From: Amphiscolops sp. MND2022
Taxonomy: Eukaryota
NCBI GenBank assembly: GCA_964187785.1
Contig: OZ076412.1
Coordinates: 2,480,001 to 2,544,000, forward strand
Length of the DNA: 64,000 nt
Reading direction: 5' to 3'
Shown here: one piece after another, positions 38,520 through 64,000 of the stretch
Numbering within the stretch: the stretch's first letter is position 1
Layout: each line of letters starts with the position of its first letter
Notes under the pieces: generated by a model
Database searches by the model: none
What the model was told of the DNA's origin: nothing
What the model saw: the letters and a program-made list of their open reading frames with translations, nothing else
Made by a program: the position numbers and the translations under genes

Positions 38520-40993
38520 TTAATGCAGTGTAGGTGAAAAACTCCTTTTTCGAATCAATGATCGCTTTGTCTTGTTCACACAAGTGTGAAACGAAGCTGA
38601 CTCATGGTTTCTAACATGACCTCTATTTTCCGTTCACAACATCGTGGAAACATGCGAGCAATACATTTTAATATGGGAATTATTTTATTTCTGCGTAGAT
38701 GGATATTCTGTGCTAAAATTTTGGGGGACAGATAAATCTCCTGGCAGTAGGCTGGGGCATTAGCAAACAAGATCCCTTGTTTCTACCGGTCGACTGGGAT
38801 AGTGGCTGGTATGAATAGTTTGTTGGTTGTTTTTTTGTTATTTCTCGCTCCACACGATTGGAAATCAAATGCATATATTTTTCAAAAGTTTTCACTGATA
38901 TGATACCGAACTTCGAAAACTTCCGAGTGTACTCACTCTCAACAAAGGCAAAGGGCTTCAATTCAAGGCAGACCCACTCAAGCCATCCATATATAGTCTC
39001 ACTTTTCTTGCAGTTTTCCAAAACTTTTCCAAAACAAGCCACATTGGGAAGTTGTTCGAAAGAATGATCGAGCGACGACTCCGTATCTTCCTTGAGGAAG
39101 AAAGTATCATCGAAGAAGAACAAGAAGGGTTTCAAAGAGGAAAGAACACGCTTAGATCCCTCTACAGACTCGATCTCGAATGTGAATTGGCAAGAACGCA
39201 TGAGGAATCTGCTGCACTTCTAAACGTTGACTTTGAAAAAGCATTCGACAGTGTGTGGCTTGATGGCTTGATCTACAAATTGAAGAACCTGAAAATCAAT
39301 GGGAAAATGATAAAGATGATCGACGTCTTCCTTCGTTCCAAAAAAGGACAGATTCACCTAGATCCTTACACCTCACCCCTCTTCGGTATCCAAATTGGAC
39401 TACCACATGGAAGCGCTCTCTCCCCTGTGCTATTTCTTATTTTCATCTCTGATTTCTTATCCAATTCATTGAAATGCTTTAAAATTGCCGACGATTCTTC
39501 AGTACTTCTATCCGGACAGAAAATTACTAAATCGTTAAAGGACATCTGCTCAGATATAGAAATGTGGTGTAGACAATGGAGAATGGCTGTAAACGGGTCA
39601 AAAACCGAAATTTTGCCTTTACCAACTCACACGAAGATTTTACGCAGATCAAATTGAACGAAGAAAACTGCAAAATTAGCGAAACCACGAAATCACTTGG
39701 ACTCAACATCGTTTCCAAACTCAACTACAAAGAACACACTGGAATCTCAGTTGCCAAAGCTACGCGAAACTGGCATATCCTCCGAAAACATTGCAGCTCA
39801 AAGTGGGGCATCACCATTCCGACCCTAGTCTATCTTTACCGATCTGTCATACAACCCCAAGTTTTATATGGAGCACCAATATGGGCACAAAAGAATATCA
39901 AATCACTACAACTCTTCCAAAACAATATCCTTAGATTGATCTTCAAAAACTGTTTATCGCCACCTATTAGTACAGCTGAAGCTCTCTCAGGGATCCCACC
40001 AATCGACCTTTTCTGTCAAAGTCTAGCAGTCAAAGTTTTATTCAAAACGGAGCAAAAAAGACGACTTAATTCAAGCAGCCCACAACCAAGCATTAACCCA
40101 AAATCGCAGCAATAGTTGCGTCCTCGAAAATTTCTGGAGAAGGCATTGCAAAGTGACCAATACAACCGAAATTGGTTACACCCCTGAGTCGATATCCGCA
40201 TTTCTAAATACTTTATGGTTAAAGCGTTGGAAAAGTCCTTTGACCGATGTCTTCCTAAAAAATTTCATTCACTCGAAACCCGCTGTTGGTAAACCCTGTC
40301 CACTTATTAGGGGAAATCCCTATTATGCAAACCGCAACTGCAGCCTCCTGATGGCCAACACGACGATATTCAATGAAATCGAATGGAAGTTAAGCAAATG
40401 TGCCTCCCCGAAATGCTCATGCGGTGATGAAGACAACGCATACCATTATTTCCTTGTCTGCAGCAAATTCTCTGCTATCCGTCCAAACAAAATTGCCCTC
40501 CTTGACATCTTCGACGATACCGACTGCAAAATATTGAAAGAATTCATCGATTCCAGCAAAAACTCGAAGAACCTTACCGGTGACATTTTCACTTCAATCA
40601 AACTGTTGCTCACCCAAACTGAATAACTAAACCCAACTTTACATCCTCCCGCAAAGATATATATATCTTGCAGTTGCATGAACAGAAGTGTTGTTTGTGG
40701 TGTTGCATGCTGACTTCGAATGTGCTGCATTTTATTCGACCATCCGGTGCCTTGCTTTTGTTTCAAAATCTTCCCACAGGAGCATTTGTAGACATCGTTG
40801 TCGACGTGGCTGAACTTGTTCACCTCAGTTTCAAGTCCTTTTCTGGGGTTTCAACAGCGTGCTTACTCATTTAATTCAAACCTGAAAAACCAATTTTTCC
40901 AATTATTGGTAGAGAGATTTGCAATTATTTGGAAAATGGAAAGCGGCCAATGCAATTAATTGACCAATTATAATTGCAATAATTGCAACCCTA
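38520..40993 (-). mobile_element. hAT-like DNA transposon 5' half (BED finger), split by a LINE insertion
   Basis: BED-like YKCSCGKILKQKQGTGWSNKMQHIRSQH (40446..40823). The frame rejoins as ATPQTTL|PNVAC across the LINE. Candidate TIR TAGGGTTGCAAT ends at 40993. Confidence 0.7.
39053..40684 (+). mobile_element. 5'-truncated I/Jockey-like LINE (RT and C-terminal knuckle)
   Basis: QEGFQRGK, VDFEKAFDSVW, LPHGSALSPVLF, KIADD and CSCGDEDNAYHYFLVC. Flanked by GAAGT at 39048-39052 and 40685-40689. Two frameshifts. Confidence 0.9.
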
Positions 40994-41399: not shown

Positions 41400-42900
41400 C
41401 CAATGAGTTTCTTTTATCCGAGTTTGACTGTATACCGATGTATTATGATTTCTTCGAGATGGGCTGCCCCTGCCTGTAATCTTCGCGTTGCTTCAACTTC
41501 GGTTGTCTTCTTGCGATATACAGAGCTTCAAGCGTTAGTAATCGCCCTGGATCTTCACACTGATCCAGAACCCTGGAATAACGTTCTGGAGCGTCGCCGG
41601 TACTGTTCTCAAGGTGATTTCCCACGGGTGAGCTTTTACGGGCATGCTCTGCTAGTCGGGTCATCAAATGCCGTGTCGTGTGACCGACATAGCTGGACTT
41701 GCATCCAGATAAGGTAATTTCGTAAATGACTCGGCTTTTCAGATCATCTGATATTTTGCTCTTCAGGGAAGGTAAGACAGTTTTCATTTTTCTTGTAGTC
41801 AACAGAACGCAGACGTGTAATCTTCCTGAAACTTCTACTGAAACGGTCGAAAGTATGTCCTCTATGTTCCAACAGAGTGGGCCGTGCCTTCTTTTCTTGT
41901 GGGTCTCCCGAGCTTTACTTCAGTTTCGCATCTGTAGCCTGTTGCTCCTTTTGGATGAACATTTAGCTGATTGTGTTCTCAACTATGGGTTGGTAATATG
42001 GTGGTGGGTACTGGTTCTTCTTGAACATGTCCTTTGCTGAAACTAGTGCATCGTGGAAGTTGTTGCAGCTCGACGTGGTTTTGTTGATGTGACAGACTGT
42101 ACCTTCTTTGACATTTCGCTTGTACAGTTTCGGGCACTTGCTCGGAAAGACAGCATGAGGCCTGTGTATGTGGGTTTGCTATACCAGGCAGTGCTGAGTT
42201 TCCCATCATTACGTTCCACCATCATGTCAAGAAACGGTATCTTATTATCCACTTCTCTTTCTGAAGTGAACTTGAGGCAGGGATGTAGGTTATTGGCATG
42301 TGACATGATGTTGTCTATGTCAGCCACTCTCGCTGTTCTAATGATGTCGTCAACATATCTCCCGAAAACTTTGGCCTTCGTGATGCTGACCTGCACCTGT
42401 GCAATGTTGGAATGACATCCACAATACCAGGGTGTGTTATTGCGACTTTATCACCTGATACATCAACTTTTAGGTCCGTGCATATGCGATGGCACCAGGT
42501 GTGACATTCATCACATCTGATCGAGTAGCTTCATTTCGTGACCTTCGTTTGGCAGCGCATGCACACACTTCTGCCAGCTTGATATTCGACCTCGTTTGGA
42601 CGTGAACTGCTAACCGACAGAGTGGTGTCTGTCCCCGACAGGACCCCTTCATATTGACTGAGCCACAGATTAGCTGAAATAACCGCTAATGCTCCCATGG
42701 CTACACCGTCGCATTGTTTATACCACCGACCATTAGCCATGAAATGCACGTTGGTCACAGCTAAACTCAAAAGGCGAATAAAAGTTTCCTTATCAATGGG
42801 AGGCTGCTTGTCACTTGCATATAGTTTGTCTGCTGCCAGGAGGATCGTTTCCACCACGGGCACGTTGGTGTAGAGACTTTCCACATAAACCAGCTAACGG
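41400..42900 (-). mobile_element. Penelope-like element (RT plus C-terminal GIY-YIG), 5'-truncated, decayed, with a PHD finger inside RT
   Basis: VESLYTNVP, YKQCDGVAMG, FGRYVDDII, IPFLDMMV and WYSKPT (RT). VIYEITLSGCKSSYVGHTTRHLMTRLAEH (GIY-YIG). Confidence 0.9.
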
Positions 42901-43136: not shown

Positions 43137-43331
43137 TTCGCTGAAACTTGCAGTGGATTCCACTTCAGCTTACAGTGGATTCCACTTTGGCTTACAGTCG
43201 ATTCCACTTTGGCCTACAGCCGATTCCACTTTTCAACTTGTGGAATTGACTGCAAAACGAGTGGAATTGACTGTAAGCCAAAGTTGAATTTACTGTAAGC
43301 TGAAGTGGAATCCACTGCAAGTTTCAGCGAA
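43137..43331. repeat. 195-bp foldback palindrome built from ~21-bp units containing CAGTGGATTCCAC
   Basis: The outer 40 bp form a perfect inverted repeat (TTCGCTGAAACTTGCAGTGGATTCCACTTCAGCTTACAGT and its complement); the inner units are degenerate. Confidence 0.9.
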
Positions 43332-55167: not shown

Positions 55168-56157
55168 CTATTGGTCAACGAAGTATTCAATGTGCGCATG
55201 TTGAATGTTTTGCCTGAACCTTTGTCGATGGTCTCCATTTTTTTTGTAGTGGCCTTCAGTTGTAGTTATGTGGCACCTGAGTGAGAACATCTTAAAGTCG
55301 CGATGTTCCGTGAAATTCAAAGTCTTGATCAATGTTGCAGGCTCATCTTCAAGCGTATCTGGAATGATGTCCCAATTCTGGCCCAATATAAAATCTAAGC
55401 TGTTGTAGCTTCCCAAGTTTCCCGTTGCAACTTCTATTGAAAATTTCACGTTTTCTCTGCTTGAGTCCGACTTGAACCCACAGACACGTTTTGTGAGCTC
55501 TGTTGCAGGTATCATGTTTGTCACAGTTGATGACTTCTTGAACGACAAACCAACACATCTCTTAATTGCAGAAAAGATTGCAAACGTTCTATCAACATCA
55601 TTATCAAGAGTGAAAAAATTGATTTCCACGTTTTTTAAATAGTCCGAGATCTTTAACGAACAATTGTTTACTGGCATCCTAAGTTCGCAGTGTTCGTCGT
55701 CCATGGATACCATTATTGCAAATGGTTTCAACTTCTGTGTACTGTAGTACAAATCCTCCACTTTGAATTCCATTCCAGACAAAATAATAAAGGATCCTCT
55801 TTGACAAATTCCATTGACACATGGTACATAGCATAATTTGACATCAACATCGGTTTGCGGTATCAATGCTGAAAAGTCTATTTCTGGTATTTGTGTTTTA
55901 GGTCTTTTCTGTTTTGGTTCTTCCCGATGTTCCTGCATCGTCTCTTCAGCTTCCTCGTCGTCTTCTGCTTTCTCATCGTGAACATGGGTATCTTCCCCTA
56001 GTTCTTCAAAGGGGATAAATCTAAACATTTTGTCCATCTCCACGACACACTCATGGGTAAATGGGTCATTCGCCGAAATAGTTCCCGTTTTGATTTTTCC
56101 ATTAGAATCAATAAACCGATGCCCCACACACTCACAATCGGGTAGCCAAAATGTCAC
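55168..56157 (-). CDS. Hypothetical protein, 329 aa, no recognised domain
   Basis: Long uninterrupted ORF in AT-rich DNA with an acidic linker and a globular-looking C-terminal half. The start is non-ATG, so an upstream exon is possible. Confidence 0.6.
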   Translation of the reverse strand: MTFWLPDCECVGHRFIDSNGKIKTGTISANDPFTHECVVEMDKMFRFIPFEELGEDTHVHDEKAEDDEEAEETMQEHREEPKQKRPKTQIPEIDFSALIPQTDVDVKLCYVPCVNGICQRGSFIILSGMEFKVEDLYYSTQKLKPFAIMVSMDDEHCELRMPVNNCSLKISDYLKNVEINFFTLDNDVDRTFAIFSAIKRCVGLSFKKSSTVTNMIPATELTKRVCGFKSDSSRENVKFSIEVATGNLGSYNSLDFILGQNWDIIPDTLEDEPATLIKTLNFTEHRDFKMFSLRCHITTTEGHYKKNGDHRQRFRQNIQHAHIEYFVDQ

Positions 56158-56864
56158 AGGCTGGTTTTTTGCAGTCAGTTTGGGTTATACAACAGGGGTT
56201 TAGAACGCTTTTTCGACATGACTGGTTGCGAATGTCGTGCTTTTCTAATGTTCCACCTGTTTGGGTCAGGACGCAATTCTAGGGGAATTTCAATTTTCTG
56301 CAGACGATTGTTCCAGTCGATCCATTGGATTTTCAGAGACTAATCACTTATGAACGCTATTATGTTCGCAGACTCCCAAATATAGGTTTCAGGATCGAGG
56401 ATATGGACAATTTCATTTAATTTGAAAGTTTGCAGAAGCATTGTAGTGGAGATTAAAGTTGACTTCATCAGAAAGAAATACTTGAGCTTACTCTGAGCAT
56501 AAACTGTTCAAATTTGTGCAAAGTGATTACCAGGTGTCAACACATAAACTGCGCGAAAAGAGGCTAATTTTACGGTGATGATCCTAAAAGAAGGTGTCAT
56601 TCCGATTTGAGCGCTCAATAAAAGAAATTAATACTAGCAATTAGTTTTTAAACTCATCTCGTGAGTGTTAATATATTTGAATAGGCATTTGAGTCCCGAA
56701 AGGACTCAACCACCGTAATAAACCTGATAACACTTACTGGTTGAAATTATTAATTTAGTCACTGTGAAGTGCAATGGGTGAAATCGAGTCTCTGCTAATT
56801 ATGGAAACGACGCCTTATCGAAAAAAATAATTACAAAATTGTCATTTCGTTTTACATCATAATT

Positions 56865-58841
56865 TTGATTAATTCAGCGAAATCCACTGTCAAGACTTGT
56901 TCTCCTAGTTTCATGAATACTTCTAATGACAAAATTTCAAATCAAGAATCGACACGTTTGTGTCCATCCCAGACTTCTACACCTGTGCAACAGTCACATC
57001 GACGATCTACGGACTGGAATGTGCCGCCAGATTTCCTCAGTAATGCATCCTTGTTTTGTCCGCCATCTTATTCGCCAATTCCATCGGCCCCCGAGGAGGG
57101 TTTCTTCAGTGCAACTAGAATGATGAACCCCGATGGGATCGAACACTTGATTGAACATACGCCCACAGAAGCTCTAGAACATTCACTGCAGAATGCTCAC
57201 AATCTGACTCAAGTTCCTTTGCCGCCTGAGAACCCACTACAACAGGACCCCCCGTCACAGAATTCACTGCTTCACCTGAACTTGCCACCCCAGAGCAATG
57301 TTCCCGGGACCAATGTGCCGCCCCAGCTCAATGAGCCACCCGGGAAGCGTCCATTTGACTCCCAGTGCAGTGAGGATAATTTAAGTAACAGTCAATCCAA
57401 ATGTGCGAGAGTTACTTACTTTGACAACAACATGTACGAAAGAACGTTGGCTAAACATGTGCAGGCATCGAAAGAAAATGTGGGACTAGTACAAAAAGCT
57501 AAGTTGGAACTCTTTCGATGCATAATTACAACCCTGTTCATGTATGCGGTACCACCTATGATTGAAAGTTCCATCCGGAATGTCTCGGTACACTCAGTTG
57601 TGCAAGTCGTGATGGATCACGAAGAAGATTCACTGAGCGACGCCTTCAATCGCTGTGTGGAACACACAATTGGATCATCGGAACGAACAATTCACAAAGT
57701 ATCCGGAAGTCTTGTTGAAGCATTGAAAGTACATTTTACACAAATTCGGCCATTTTTTGTTACCAATCACACCAAGTTAGCCATTGTTTGATACGAAAAG
57801 GCCGACAAACGTCCAATTAATACAGAGTTATTCTTTGTGAATTCAATTGGTAAAACGGACTTCCGCGTTAAATCTGTTGTAGATCTTTTCATTTCAAGCA
57901 AAAAAGCAGAAACAAAAGATCAATGTACATTGAAAGGTAAAGTCGCGGAACTGATGCCCCTTTCCAATGACCCATGCTTCAAAATCACCAAGCTGAAACA
58001 TGCATTGAATTTGGTTCTTTCGAATGTTGAAGGTTTCGACAAAGACGATATGAGAAACGCTGTTCGCGCCCGCCAAGACCAGCAGAGGTACACTCGCCAG
58101 TCAGCCAGCGCCTTGCTATACTTTGAACACGTTTCTGGGAAAGTTGCTATTAACTGTCTTGAGTCAAGAGTGGCGGTATTTTTTCAGCGACAAAAGTGGA
58201 CTTCGCTGGAGGATAAGAACCAGGACGTGAAAAAAGTGACAGCGCAGTTATTGATTCTCTTTAACAACCAGTCAATTAGAAAATCTTCGCAGGTACCTGA
58301 GAGCAGTGGAATTCGTTATGCTGGACTTGCTCATAATTTGCCATATGAAGAACAAACTTTGTTGTCGCAACGATGTGAGACGCAGCTGTGGCCTGGAATC
58401 TGTTTAGCCATAATGTCAAAATTTGGGAGATGTGTGATTGCCACACAGAAAATTTCAAAGGACGACATTTTGATGGATTACCATGGCGAGGTGTATTTGA
58501 ACATGTCATTGAGCCAAGTCCTCGAGAAAGAAGGTGTGGAGCAAGAGTTCGTTCTGGAGGTTAAAAGTGGCGCCTCTAGAAGGATCATTGATGCCTCCAA
58601 AGAGATTTGCCCCCTTCACACAAATATTTGCTGCCCTGGACGTCTTGCCAACCACTCGCAGTTGAAATCAAACGGCGCCAACATGAAGCCCACAGTGATC
58701 GAATTGTTTCAAAATGGCAAAAAGATTGTAGTGTTCTGAGCTACACGTGATATTCTATCATTTGAGCAGCTCCGTATTGATTACAATGACCCCATTGCCA
58801 ATCAACTTTTCCAGGAAGATTCTCAACCGATGTTTGACTGA
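56865..58841 (+). pseudogene. Pro/Gln-rich N-terminus plus PR-Set7/SET8(KMT5A)-like SET domain; one frame broken by two TGA codons
   Basis: ORFs 56865..57791 and 57837..58739 share a frame, with no other stop between them. Motifs GRCVIAT...DYHGE...IIDAS...GRLANHS, then after TGA 58737 ATRDI...QLRIDY, ending at TGA 58839-58841. Confidence 0.8.
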
Positions 58842-60253: not shown

Positions 60254-60423
60254 ATGTGAGCTTTTAGAGTCTCGGACTCAGAGCCGCTGTTGTTACCTCT
60301 TTATAGCATTTCGAATTAAAGGTGAGCTTTTAGAGTCTTGGACTCAAAGCCCCCTTAGTAATTCTTAGCCATTAAGACTCAAATTGTTCGAATCGCGTTT
60401 TTTTCAAGTCATTACCAAAATCA

Positions 60424-61539
60424 ATGGGTAAACCGGAATTGAACCTCAAGGAATCCGATCAAGCACTTATGTGGCTCAAGGCGTTCGAAGCGCGAGCGCG
60501 TGTTGAAAAGAAAAGGGACATCGACGCAACACCTGGAACTAGTGGACCGCCAGCTGTTGCTGCCATAGCAAAAGATTATCAGGTGTCTGATTTCTTTATG
60601 AGCCAATGCGGCCTCGAAGCGTTGATAAAGCTCAGTAGCCTCGTCGCGCCCAGAAACATTGAAGACATGAAATTCATAGACATTCGTAAGGATCTCATAA
60701 ATTACTTGAAGCCACAAGAGAGACTGATGGTTGCAGAACGCACTGGCTTCCTTCAGATGTCTCAAGGGGGAGCAGAAGCAGAAACCGACTACCTTGCTAG
60801 GCTCCGAGAGGCTGCGCGTTATTGTAAGTTTGTCGATCTGAAAGCTTCTCCGGATCCTGAAGCTGAAATGATCCGACTACAATCCATCGCCGGACTACGA
60901 GACAGCGAATCAAAGCTCAAGTTGCTTGAAGCACTCAGAGCAAACGACAACTTGACTGTGGAAGACCTGCTTCAGCTTATTCAATACAGAACGCAGGCCA
61001 AGAGATTTGCTGAGAGCTCAGTTCATCAGTCAACTTCAAGTGTAGTAGCATATGCGGAAAAACGTGGCGCCAATAATAAAAAAGATCTGAGTCGCCGTCA
61101 GAAGCCAGAGCAGTGTGGACGATGTGGACGAAAGCTATTCCATTTACTTCATGAGTGCCCTGCCAAGGATGAAAAGTGCCACAATTGTTCGAAGCAAGGA
61201 CACTATTCCAGAATGTGCAAAGCTAAAAGACAAGAAGCCTCGCGAACTGAGGGGAAAACCTATCGAAAATCAAATGCATCAGTGTACCATACTTGTGAAG
61301 AACAAGAATTCGAAAATTCCGCCTCGTCTGAGGAAACCATGTATTATGCAGAACAAGTCGCAACTGTAGAAGAAGTCCATCACATTGGAAGCAAAGCATT
61401 TCATAGCATCAAGATAAATGGCCATGACGTTCGAATGCAGAACGACACTGGATCTTCAGTGACCATTATTTCAACAAAAATTTGGCGGGAAATTGGCTCT
61501 CCTACCTTGAGCACTAGCCCCCGATGGATTGAAGCATAA
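60424..61539 (+). CDS. gag: Gypsy Gag (two CCHC-type knuckles) running into aspartic protease (NDTGS)
   Basis: CGRCG...H...C and CHNCSKQGHYSRMC; MQNDTGSSVTII; a premature TAA ends the frame. Confidence 0.9.
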   Translation: MGKPELNLKESDQALMWLKAFEARARVEKKRDIDATPGTSGPPAVAAIAKDYQVSDFFMSQCGLEALIKLSSLVAPRNIEDMKFIDIRKDLINYLKPQERLMVAERTGFLQMSQGGAEAETDYLARLREAARYCKFVDLKASPDPEAEMIRLQSIAGLRDSESKLKLLEALRANDNLTVEDLLQLIQYRTQAKRFAESSVHQSTSSVVAYAEKRGANNKKDLSRRQKPEQCGRCGRKLFHLLHECPAKDEKCHNCSKQGHYSRMCKAKRQEASRTEGKTYRKSNASVYHTCEEQEFENSASSEETMYYAEQVATVEEVHHIGSKAFHSIKINGHDVRMQNDTGSSVTIISTKIWREIGSPTLSTSPRWIEA

Positions 61540-64000
61540 GATGGACACAGAAAGCTTTATATTGGTCATCTAAAGTGTGAGATCCCTTGGGAAAAAAAAT
61601 TCATAGCGTTGACGTTGCAGTTATCGAGTCCGAGAAAGAATTCGGATTGATCGGCAGAGACGTGACCCGAGTTGATCACATTCACAACGCGTCTCTGTCT
61701 GATGTAAAAGTCTTGCCTGCAATTAAAGGAGTTAAAGCCACTATCAAACTGAAGCCTGACGCAAAACCTGTTTTCTGTCGCGCTCGAAAAGTTCCACTTG
61801 CCATGGAAAATCAGGTCAAGATTGAATTGGCGAAACTTCAGGCACAAGGAATCATTGCCCCAGTCGACCCAGGAGGTGTCATGAATGCCTCGCCTGTCGT
61901 GTGGCAAAGGAAGAAAGACGGATCTTTTCGGCTTTGTGCAGACTTCAAAGTTCATGTGAACGATAAGATCATGACTGAAGACTACCCCCTTCCCGACATG
62001 GAAACATTATTTCACGAGCTGGAAGGATCAAAGTTTTACGTCAAGATTAACTTATCATCTCCTTATTACCAAATAATGCTGGATGATGCAGCGCAGGAAA
62101 TTTGTGTCATCAACACAACGCTGGGTCTCTTCAAGTTACTCAGACTACCTCAAGGAATGAAAAATGCATCCGGAATGTTCCAGCGAACAATCGAGAACAC
62201 TCTCAAAGGATTGGCTGGAACTATCTGTTTCCAGGACGACGTACTGGTACACGGAAGAACGAAAAGTCAATGTGAGAAGCGTTGGAGGGCAGTTCAGGAT
62301 CGCCTGAAAGACAAGGGGTTCACCATAAACGAAATCAAATCTGGAAATGTCATGGAGAAAATCACTTTTCTCGGTTTTACAATTTCAGGAAGCGGGATTG
62401 AGCCCGATGATTGCCTTGTCAATAAAGTCAGGAAAATCCATCCGCCTCAGAGTGTTAAGGAAGTCGAACAATTTTGTGGATTAGTCAACTTCTACGGCCG
62501 GTTCATCTCAAACTTCACGTCGAAAATTGCCCCAATATCTGATCTGAGGAAGAAGTCGGAGGCTGAGTTCCAGTGGACCGACAAGAGTCACGTGCATTCG
62601 AAAGGCTGAAATCTGAGCTAGCATCGAAACCTGTCGTTCAGCCCTATTCTCTGAAAAAGGAAGTAACAATCACGACTGATGCGTCTGAAAAAGCTATTGG
62701 CGGAGTCTTATCTCAAGAGGGGCACCCTGTAATTTATGTATCGAATACATTGTCTCAAGCTGAGCAAAGGTACTCTAACATTGAGCGAGAAGCCCTAGCG
62801 ATTGTTTTTGTGGTAAAACGCTTGAAGCAGTTTTTACTTGGCCGGAAATTCAACCTCAAAACTGATCATCGTCCCCTGGAATTCATATTTGCTCCAAACA
62901 AGGAACTCCCAAAAACCGTATCAGCAAGAATCACAAGATGGGCAATTTCGCTTATGGCCTTTGATTATGAGATTAAATACAAAGAAGGTTCCTCGATTCC
63001 TCATGCTGACGCCATGAGTAGGCTGAAATTCGATAAGGATGACGACGAGTGCAATCTAGTCGACTACTCAAGTTCCAATTTTGATGAATTCTGTGTTCAT
63101 TATGCCGAGCATAAACTCATTTCATTCGAAGAGTTGAGGAGTGAATGTGAACGCGATGAATTGGCGAAGCGAATTATCAGGCGGGTAATCGATGGCGATT
63201 AGAAAGCATGTACTCAAGTAGAGAGTATTTTCAAGAAAGTATCTGGTTTGCTCACAGTCGAGAACGGGCTGCTGTACAACGGAACTAGACCTTACATTCC
63301 ACCAAGAATGCGAAACATCGTAATTGAACGAGCCCATGACACGCACCCTGGTGTCCAGGCGACTAAGAACATGGTGAACCTAATGTCTTTGTGGCTTGGG
63401 GTTGGAAAAGATGTTGAAAAATTCATAAGTGCCTGTTCTGAATGTGCAAAAATCCGACCACGAACTGAGAAATCGATCGATACTTGGCCAGATGCACAAC
63501 CATGGGAGAGACTACACTTGGATTGGGCTTATATTTAAGAAGTAGGCAACATTCTTACCATTGTCGACGCTGGATCTGGTTGGATAGAAGCGTTCATATG
63601 CGGCGATCGGCCCACTGAAAAAGTCATACATTGTCTGTCCGCCATTTTTGGGAGATTTGGGGTCCCACAAACTTTAGTTTCCGACAATGCAAAAGAATTT
63701 ATCAACGACAAAGTTGTCACGTGGTTACAGGCTCAAGGCTGCACCAAATTAGAGAGCCCAATCTACAATCCAAGGAGTAATGGACTTGCCGAACGGGCTG
63801 TGCAGACTGTAAAGAAAGCAATGAGGGCATGGAACTCGTCTCTTCGTGTCAGTTTCCATGCATTTCTGCAGCAAGTCCTGTTCACACACCGTAACACTTC
63901 TTCCGTGAGAGGGAAGACTCCCTCAGAAGTTCTGCTTGGAAGGAAAATCCGACTTCCTGCTGTCATCAATTATCCCATCGGAGAGCGCGTAGTTTTTCGT
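61540..64000 (+). pseudogene. pol: Gypsy pol: RT, RNase H, integrase (disrupted)
   Basis: RLCADF, LPQG and FQDD (RT); TDASEKAIG and TDHRPL (RNase H); AHDTHPG...CSEC, VDAGS, VSDN and NGLAERAV (IN). Confidence 0.9.

Follow-up and report, generated by a model that had tools for sequence, protein, structure and literature searches.

The window analyzed here, a 64,000-nucleotide stretch of contig OZ076412.1 from Amphiscolops sp. MND2022, poses the question of whether a PHD finger can sit inside the palm of a reverse transcriptase (RT) as an inherited part of the protein or is an accident of one broken copy, and, if it is inherited, what it might do there. We confirmed that window positions 41452-42886 on the minus strand are a decayed, truncated copy of a Penelope-like element in which a PHD finger separates RT motif B′ from motif C. 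Its extent (about 41452..42886, with several frameshifts) was set by similarity to other copies; the copy is cut off at RT motif A on the 5′ side and short of the pseudo-LTR on the 3′ side, and the 5′ half of the element and its 3′ pseudo-LTR are missing. Read in the direction of the element, all on the minus strand, a remnant of motif A (ESLYTNVP, 42858..42881), with the 5′ junction just upstream and the catalytic Asp position not retained, is followed by motif B′ (QCDGVAMG, 42693..42716), in which one following codon is deleted relative to other copies, and by the motif read as SQYE (42659-42648). A variable linker (42564..42647; mean identity 0.17 over 19 families) leads from the B′ helix to the PHD finger (42415..42563), a C4HC3 finger with a C-x-C last pair that begins with CMRC (42563-42552), runs through IRCDECHTWCHRIC (42521-42480) and ends, in the other frame, with WYCGC (42429-42415). 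A second variable linker (42367..42414; mean identity 0.18 over 19 families) enters the strand of motif C, read as FGRYVDD (42346..42366), after which come motifs D and E with the start of the thumb (42142..42345, PFLDM at 42237-42223) and then, at the C-terminus, the GIY-YIG endonuclease (41500..41727, YVGHT at 41691-41677). The last matches Pfam PF01541 at an E value of 0.0021, below the cut-off, with the intact protein P0001 above it. From G(xx)MG to YVDD the copy spans about 117-118 codons; Penelope-like elements of this genome that lack the finger have 33 there, and the difference agrees with the roughly 85 extra codons counted when the sequence alone was read.

The finger of this copy is broken. 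A TGA codon within it (42533-42531, minus strand) reads CGA in all four other family copies aligned over the site, and a 1-nt deletion at about 42,460, which shifts the frame, is absent from the same four; the stop and the frameshift are damage to the window copy. The sequence-only reading had placed the finger between the RT motifs and in frame with the RT on both sides: the motifs were all found on the minus strand, but no open frame runs through the insert, and each half shares its frame only with the adjoining part of the RT. On its own, the broken finger scores 18.4 bits against the Pfam PHD model, below the cut-off of 24; the intact finger of a sister, P0002, passes at 29 bits, and those of two other sisters reach 21.1 and 22.8 bits. 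The window copy's own family is old, and its longer copies are 78 to 92% identical to the window copy. The segment is not missing from most family copies, an outcome that would have spoken against the finger: all seven copies with both flanks carry the interval (L003 and L015 being one locus). Three copies are damaged in this region, namely L004, which is 5′-truncated inside linker 1 and lost the finger, together with motif B′, through a deletion beside its 5′ junction, L002, which has an internal deletion of 33 nt, and L019, which has an unrelated insertion of about 520-540 bp inside the finger.

Intact members were sought outside the window, and the search succeeded in sister families, while no copy with a clean open frame through the insert was found in the window's own family. 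A search of the genome at the protein level, in which 150 of 384 candidates were scored, yielded at least 14 diverged families with an open frame from B′ through the finger to YxDD, 40 to 52% identical to the first family, and in several PHD-bearing families the full ORF of RT and GIY-YIG endonuclease (853-905 aa) was recovered. The distance from motif B′ to motif C is 98-126 aa in PHD families, against 33 aa in those families of this genome that have no finger. A profile search of a public collection gave a clear score gap between PHD-bearing and PHD-less clusters: 37 of the top 53 clusters (115-231 bits) could be measured, and all had intervals of 95-126 aa with 5-11 Cys, and of the 63 measurable clusters among the next 67, 62 had intervals of 33-40 aa and one of 58 aa. 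Motifs B′ and C lie close together, as the sequence-only reading had stated, at 33-40 aa in nearly all PHD-less relatives sampled. The best 150 matches among 1.84 billion representatives showed the same kinds of hit, and a search of the ESM Atlas found nothing but generic RT clusters, below 0.8. Just one species is named for any PHD-clade cluster, the acoel Symsagittifera roscoffensis, with two members, one of which stops before the finger and the other of which has its first half.

RT trees computed without the insert place these elements together. In a 55-row tree, 20 of 20 PHD rows, including the window copy, fell on one branch (SH-aLRT 99), as did 20 of 20 in a 41-row LG+G4 tree from which 14 long or distant outgroup rows had been left out (support 100/99). 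The PHD clade is nested among PHD-less elements, and no PHD-less row was nested inside it in either tree. Because the PHD-bearing RTs form one clade, a single gain of the insertion is the simplest reading. PHD families have moved recently, since 17 matches of one of them reach 97-100% identity and contig C1820 holds a 2,743-bp tandem array of another; PHD-less relatives are as young and as numerous in this genome, so the finger is not needed for mobility generally. The B′-C loop tolerates inserts: P0176 and P0235, database proteins of a PHD-less sister lineage, carry an unrelated, Cys-poor insert of 223 aa at the same site, and the PHD-less P0287 has an interval of 58 aa. An intron or a later insertion is ruled out as the source of the segment: sister frames are open, inserts have lengths that preserve the frame, and every two-flank copy of the window's family contains the interval.

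By the features stated in PMC8557442, and with trees that held no named reference elements, the element would be of the Penelope/Poseidon type. The one ORF of intact members, 853-905 aa long, encodes RVT_1 followed by a C-terminal GIY-YIG domain. In seven proteins examined by inspection, the endonuclease has a C-x2-C between the GIY-YIG strands and two His (CCHH-type), and the linker zinc finger CX2-5CxxC is absent, with no Cys cluster in the 65 residues upstream of the endonuclease. Direct repeats of 181-233 bp, the pseudo-LTRs, flank L061, L081, and L085. A motif scan that required stem II pairing, which makes a count of covariation in that stem circular, found 93 matches (30 distinct) to minimal hammerhead motifs in 634 kb of overlapping loci, against 0.2 in shuffles; these include the window's family, with none anywhere in the 64-kb window itself, and Rfam models detected no hammerhead at gathering or E-value thresholds. 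The putative ribozyme has an extra nucleotide between 9 and 10.1, a G10.1-C11.1 pair, and a palindromic helix III, the minimal hammerhead traits listed in PMC4209133. According to PMC8557442, a single ORF, a C-terminal GIY-YIG domain of the CCHH type, no linker finger, and pseudo-LTRs are Penelope/Poseidon features. The elements described here share with that clade a single ORF with a DKG motif, a telomerase-like RT, the CCHH-type C-terminal endonuclease without linker finger, pseudo-LTRs with a minimal hammerhead, tandem arrays, and 5′ truncation (PMC8557442, PMC4209133), and differ from it in the PHD finger and linkers, 62-93 extra residues, between B′ and C.

Within this clade the finger is conserved. 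All eight zinc ligands are invariant across 14 families (C4HC3), the last zinc pair being C-x-C rather than C-x2-C in 18 of 24 sequences, and mean identity across 19 families is 0.37 in the finger, 0.17-0.18 in the linkers, and 0.45-0.55 in the RT and endonuclease. Selection was read from between-family pairs, there being too few changes within families for dN/dS; in five such pairs, in which pS was saturated (0.66-1.10), pN was 0.19-0.36 in the PHD finger, 0.46-0.64 in the linkers, and 0.20-0.26 in the RT. The finger is under purifying selection, and we regard this, like the architecture with the finger between motifs B′ and C, as virtually certain.

Modeling, which had been named as a check, gave a telomerase-like RT with a folded finger. 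The AlphaFold2 model of P0002, made from 65 sequences, has a mean pLDDT of 91.7 and a pTM of 0.82, with values of 76-91 in the finger region, and the motif C hairpin is intact past the finger. A fold search with this model returned TERT structures first (Z 15.6, rmsd 4.0, 386 aligned), and the RTs of group II introns and DGRs trailed the TERT matches by no more than about 1 Z unit. The prediction thus suggests an RT fold that is telomerase-like and intact around the finger. From RT structure in general, we take the finger to be inserted in a loop on the solvent side, at the distal end of the strand with YxDD.

Taken alone, the finger has Pygopus as its best match in sequence (E 3e-11) and the Pygo PHD finger as the first in fold (Z 6.9, rmsd 2.0, 56 aligned), and nearly all of the matches listed in the fold search were PHD fingers. 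The segment is supported as a real PHD finger and, by the seven two-flank copies and the open frames of 14 sister families, as a fixed part of the ORF. A C1 or RING domain was rejected, its Pfam scores being weaker than or equal to those for PHD and such folds being absent among the top fold matches.

Where did the finger come from? The same PHD subtype, with the unusual W-x-C-G-C end, is found in non-LTR elements of this genome. On contig C4 of the genome (G000), L131:1465-5625 (minus strand) is an intact non-LTR ORF of 1,387 aa in which a 2A-like GDVESNPGP is followed by the PHD finger, the endonuclease, and the RT, and L132 has an RTE-like ORF with the same N-terminal layout. L114:1429-2568 and L105:1459-2193 (both minus strand) are ends of RTE-like ORFs with the finger at the C-terminus, an unusual position, that of L114 having C2H2-like fingers beside the PHD, and a related finger is present in an ORF1-like protein of L134. 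On a profile of the Penelope finger, L101, L104, L105, L114, L131, and L134 score 46-61 bits versus 41 for Pygopus, five of the non-LTR elements in this range having the same W-x-C-G-C finger, and L132 and L107 score 30 and 25 bits. A tree of PHD fingers alone branches without resolution and shows neither donor nor direction. Because the subtype occurs in this genome, the fingers of CR1/L2 elements have Pygo structures (2vpb and 3zpv) as their best matches (PMC4120745), and a 2A-PHD-endonuclease layout is known (PMC3708506), the donor was probably a non-LTR element with the same PHD subtype. The CR1/L2 and 2A-bearing elements share the Pygopus-like subtype, with 2vpb and 3zpv as best matches, and the 2A-PHD-endonuclease layout recurs here in L131, but their finger lies in ORF1 or at an end of ORF2, outside the catalytic domains (PMC4120745, PMC3708506).

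A precedent for a PHD finger within the protein of a Penelope-like element exists, and the sequence-only reading had missed it. PMC8557442 describes PHD insertions in five Chlamys families (Chlamydomonas): in three of them the finger lies between RT2a and RT3, in the other two it is in the endonuclease, and, as here, it is inside a single RT/endonuclease protein. Chlamys elements differ in having an N-terminal endonuclease, in their occurrence in green algae, and in the position of the finger, between RT2a and RT3(A) or in the endonuclease (PMC8557442), whereas in our elements the site is between RT4(B′) and RT5(C), and about 13-30 residues separate the finger from YxDD. The Chlamys/Naiad layout was not found in our elements, in which the endonuclease is C-terminal and the finger follows motif B′, and the capture of a PHD finger here is independent of that in Chlamys. 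For the Penelope/Poseidon-type site the earlier statement stood: we found no description of a finger between B′ and C in animal Penelope/Poseidon-type elements in a literature that covered few subscription journals, and the architecture is apparently undescribed so far, within a known class of element. For the second time, and independently, a PHD finger has been captured within the RT of a Penelope-like element, here just before the catalytic YxDD and in a loop that has 33-40 residues in nearly all other elements sampled; this loop also offers a naturally tolerated place at which a telomerase-like RT can be given a further domain.

The finger may read the H3 tail. Pygopus has a PHD finger that reads H3K4me2/3; the walls of its H3K4me2 pocket are W366, Y341, and D352 and its floor is V350 and A356, and its histone face is acidic (PMC2726290). 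The elements share with Pygopus the fold, the spacing, and three of these positions (Trp at W366 in 18 of 19 families, Val at V350 in 19 of 19, a small residue at A356 in 19 of 19) and differ from it in the mostly replaced Y341 and D352 walls, the basic loop, and the last zinc pair, often C-x-C. Pygopus-type walls at Y341 and D352 and an acidic histone face were not found to characterize the finger. Among the 24 of 28 sequences that could be parsed, at positions that are approximate where the loop has indels, the Y341 wall is aromatic in 7 and the D352 wall acidic in 1, with both only in the L069 family; by our own count, an aromatic or acidic residue occupies one of these two wall positions in 20 of 24, and the window family has Ser and Lys there. 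The loop is on average basic (+2.0), as is the finger (+3.5). Acidic residues before the first Cys are given in PMC3241642 as a mark of readers of unmodified K4. A predicted complex of the L047 finger with this genome's unmodified H3 tail and two zinc ions scored 0.00, which speaks neither for nor against binding. Comparison of the 3′ flanks of 15 PHD-bearing and 30 PHD-less insertions, a crude proxy with one family each, showed no difference in GC (p 0.91) or CpG ratio (p 0.59), and no target sequence was shared at these 3′ junctions. These results do not demonstrate the proposed chromatin-reading RT that targets insertion, the pocket being only partly Pygopus-like and the flanks of the two families compared showing no difference in GC or CpG. 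According to PMC4120745 (2014), no functional study of a LINE PHD finger was known at that time; young, intact families with and without the finger in one genome make the role of retrotransposon PHD fingers directly testable.

What remains as the best explanation is a broader one. We give about an even chance to the reading as a whole, in which the window copy is dead and the conserved B′-C finger of its lineage, once captured from a non-LTR element, likely tethers the insertion complex via the H3 tail; that the H3-tail role would be that of a general chromatin tether has, taken by itself, slightly less than an even chance and ranks ahead of nucleic-acid binding, of a passenger, and of a non-histone partner. 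The finger, probably captured a single time from a non-LTR element whose PHD was of the same subtype, would hang by two flexible linkers, and from general knowledge of the RT fold it would be attached at the distal loop of the strand carrying YxDD, out of the way of catalysis. By binding the H3 N-terminus it would tether the insertion complex to nucleosomes and make GIY-YIG nicking and target-primed reverse transcription more efficient on chromatin in general, at no specific site. The K4 state that is read would differ between families. In a bolder form, which we consider unlikely, the catalytic palm carries its own working histone reader, and many families living side by side have adjusted the K4 pocket, dividing insertion niches among themselves; if true, aromatic, acidic, or basic walls would read different chromatin states in one genome.

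Among the alternatives, repurposing of the finger as a basic nucleic-acid-binding module, gripping the element RNA, the RNA/cDNA hybrid, or the target DNA by the palm, survives best, but we hold it to be rather improbable. The net charge of the finger in the clade reaches +8, with Arg or Lys in place of the acidic loop of Pygo, the finger sits inside the RT, and the shortened last zinc pair suggests a changed function. However, several families are neutral or acidic (L069 at -7, L067 at -1, P0081 at -2), nearly all retain the pocket Trp and Val, and long variable linkers speak against a fixed contact with a duplex. Poorer still are the prospects of a passenger in a permissive loop, conserved only since its misfolding would destabilize the RT: the pocket Trp is kept even though readers of unmodified K4 fold without an aromatic cage (PMC3241642), and the PHD clade has no PHD-less row, although the linkers differ by about 30 aa and losing the finger cleanly should be easy. 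Such a passenger would fit with the unrelated inserts that the loop holds in PHD-less sisters (223 aa in P0176/P0235, 58 aa in P0287), with the activity of PHD-less families, and with the lack of a flank bias (GC and CpG, one family each).

Least probable, and in our view unlikely, is that the finger binds a non-histone protein, which could be a co-factor of the host or another copy of the element's own protein. The Pygo PHD finger does bind BCL9 on its other face. The closest structures are Pygo fingers with a loop 2 helix that is predicted here too, and PHD fingers with non-histone partners are described in PMC3241642, but the loop 2 residues are poorly conserved except for one Ser and one Glu, and the side with the histone pocket is the best-conserved surface.

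Several other features were observed around the element and elsewhere in the genome. Just past its 5′ junction, window positions 43,147-43,321 hold 22-bp tandem repeats in two opposed blocks, and a 102-bp piece of pseudo-LTR of the window's family (L217, G000:C4:2545096-2545197) lies about 1 kb past the right end of the window. The 39-kb contig G000:C1820 (L083, L051-L060) is largely PHD-bearing element arranged head to tail with a period of about 2,743 bp, its copies being 99% identical. Clusters of histone genes in G000 (L136-L147) contain at least 150 H3 matches, most of them in units of about 3.63 kb that are repeated in tandem. Within the window, a decayed, frameshifted non-LTR RT occupies 38,899-40,626 (plus strand), just upstream of the Penelope-like element, and 60,376-63,202 (plus strand) holds LTR retrotransposon frames (gag, protease, RT, and RNase H-like) whose translations were judged by inspection. 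Three frames of 315-338 aa at 55,168-58,739 (minus strand), the last with a stretch that looks SET-domain-like by eye, are possibly cargo of a DNA transposon.
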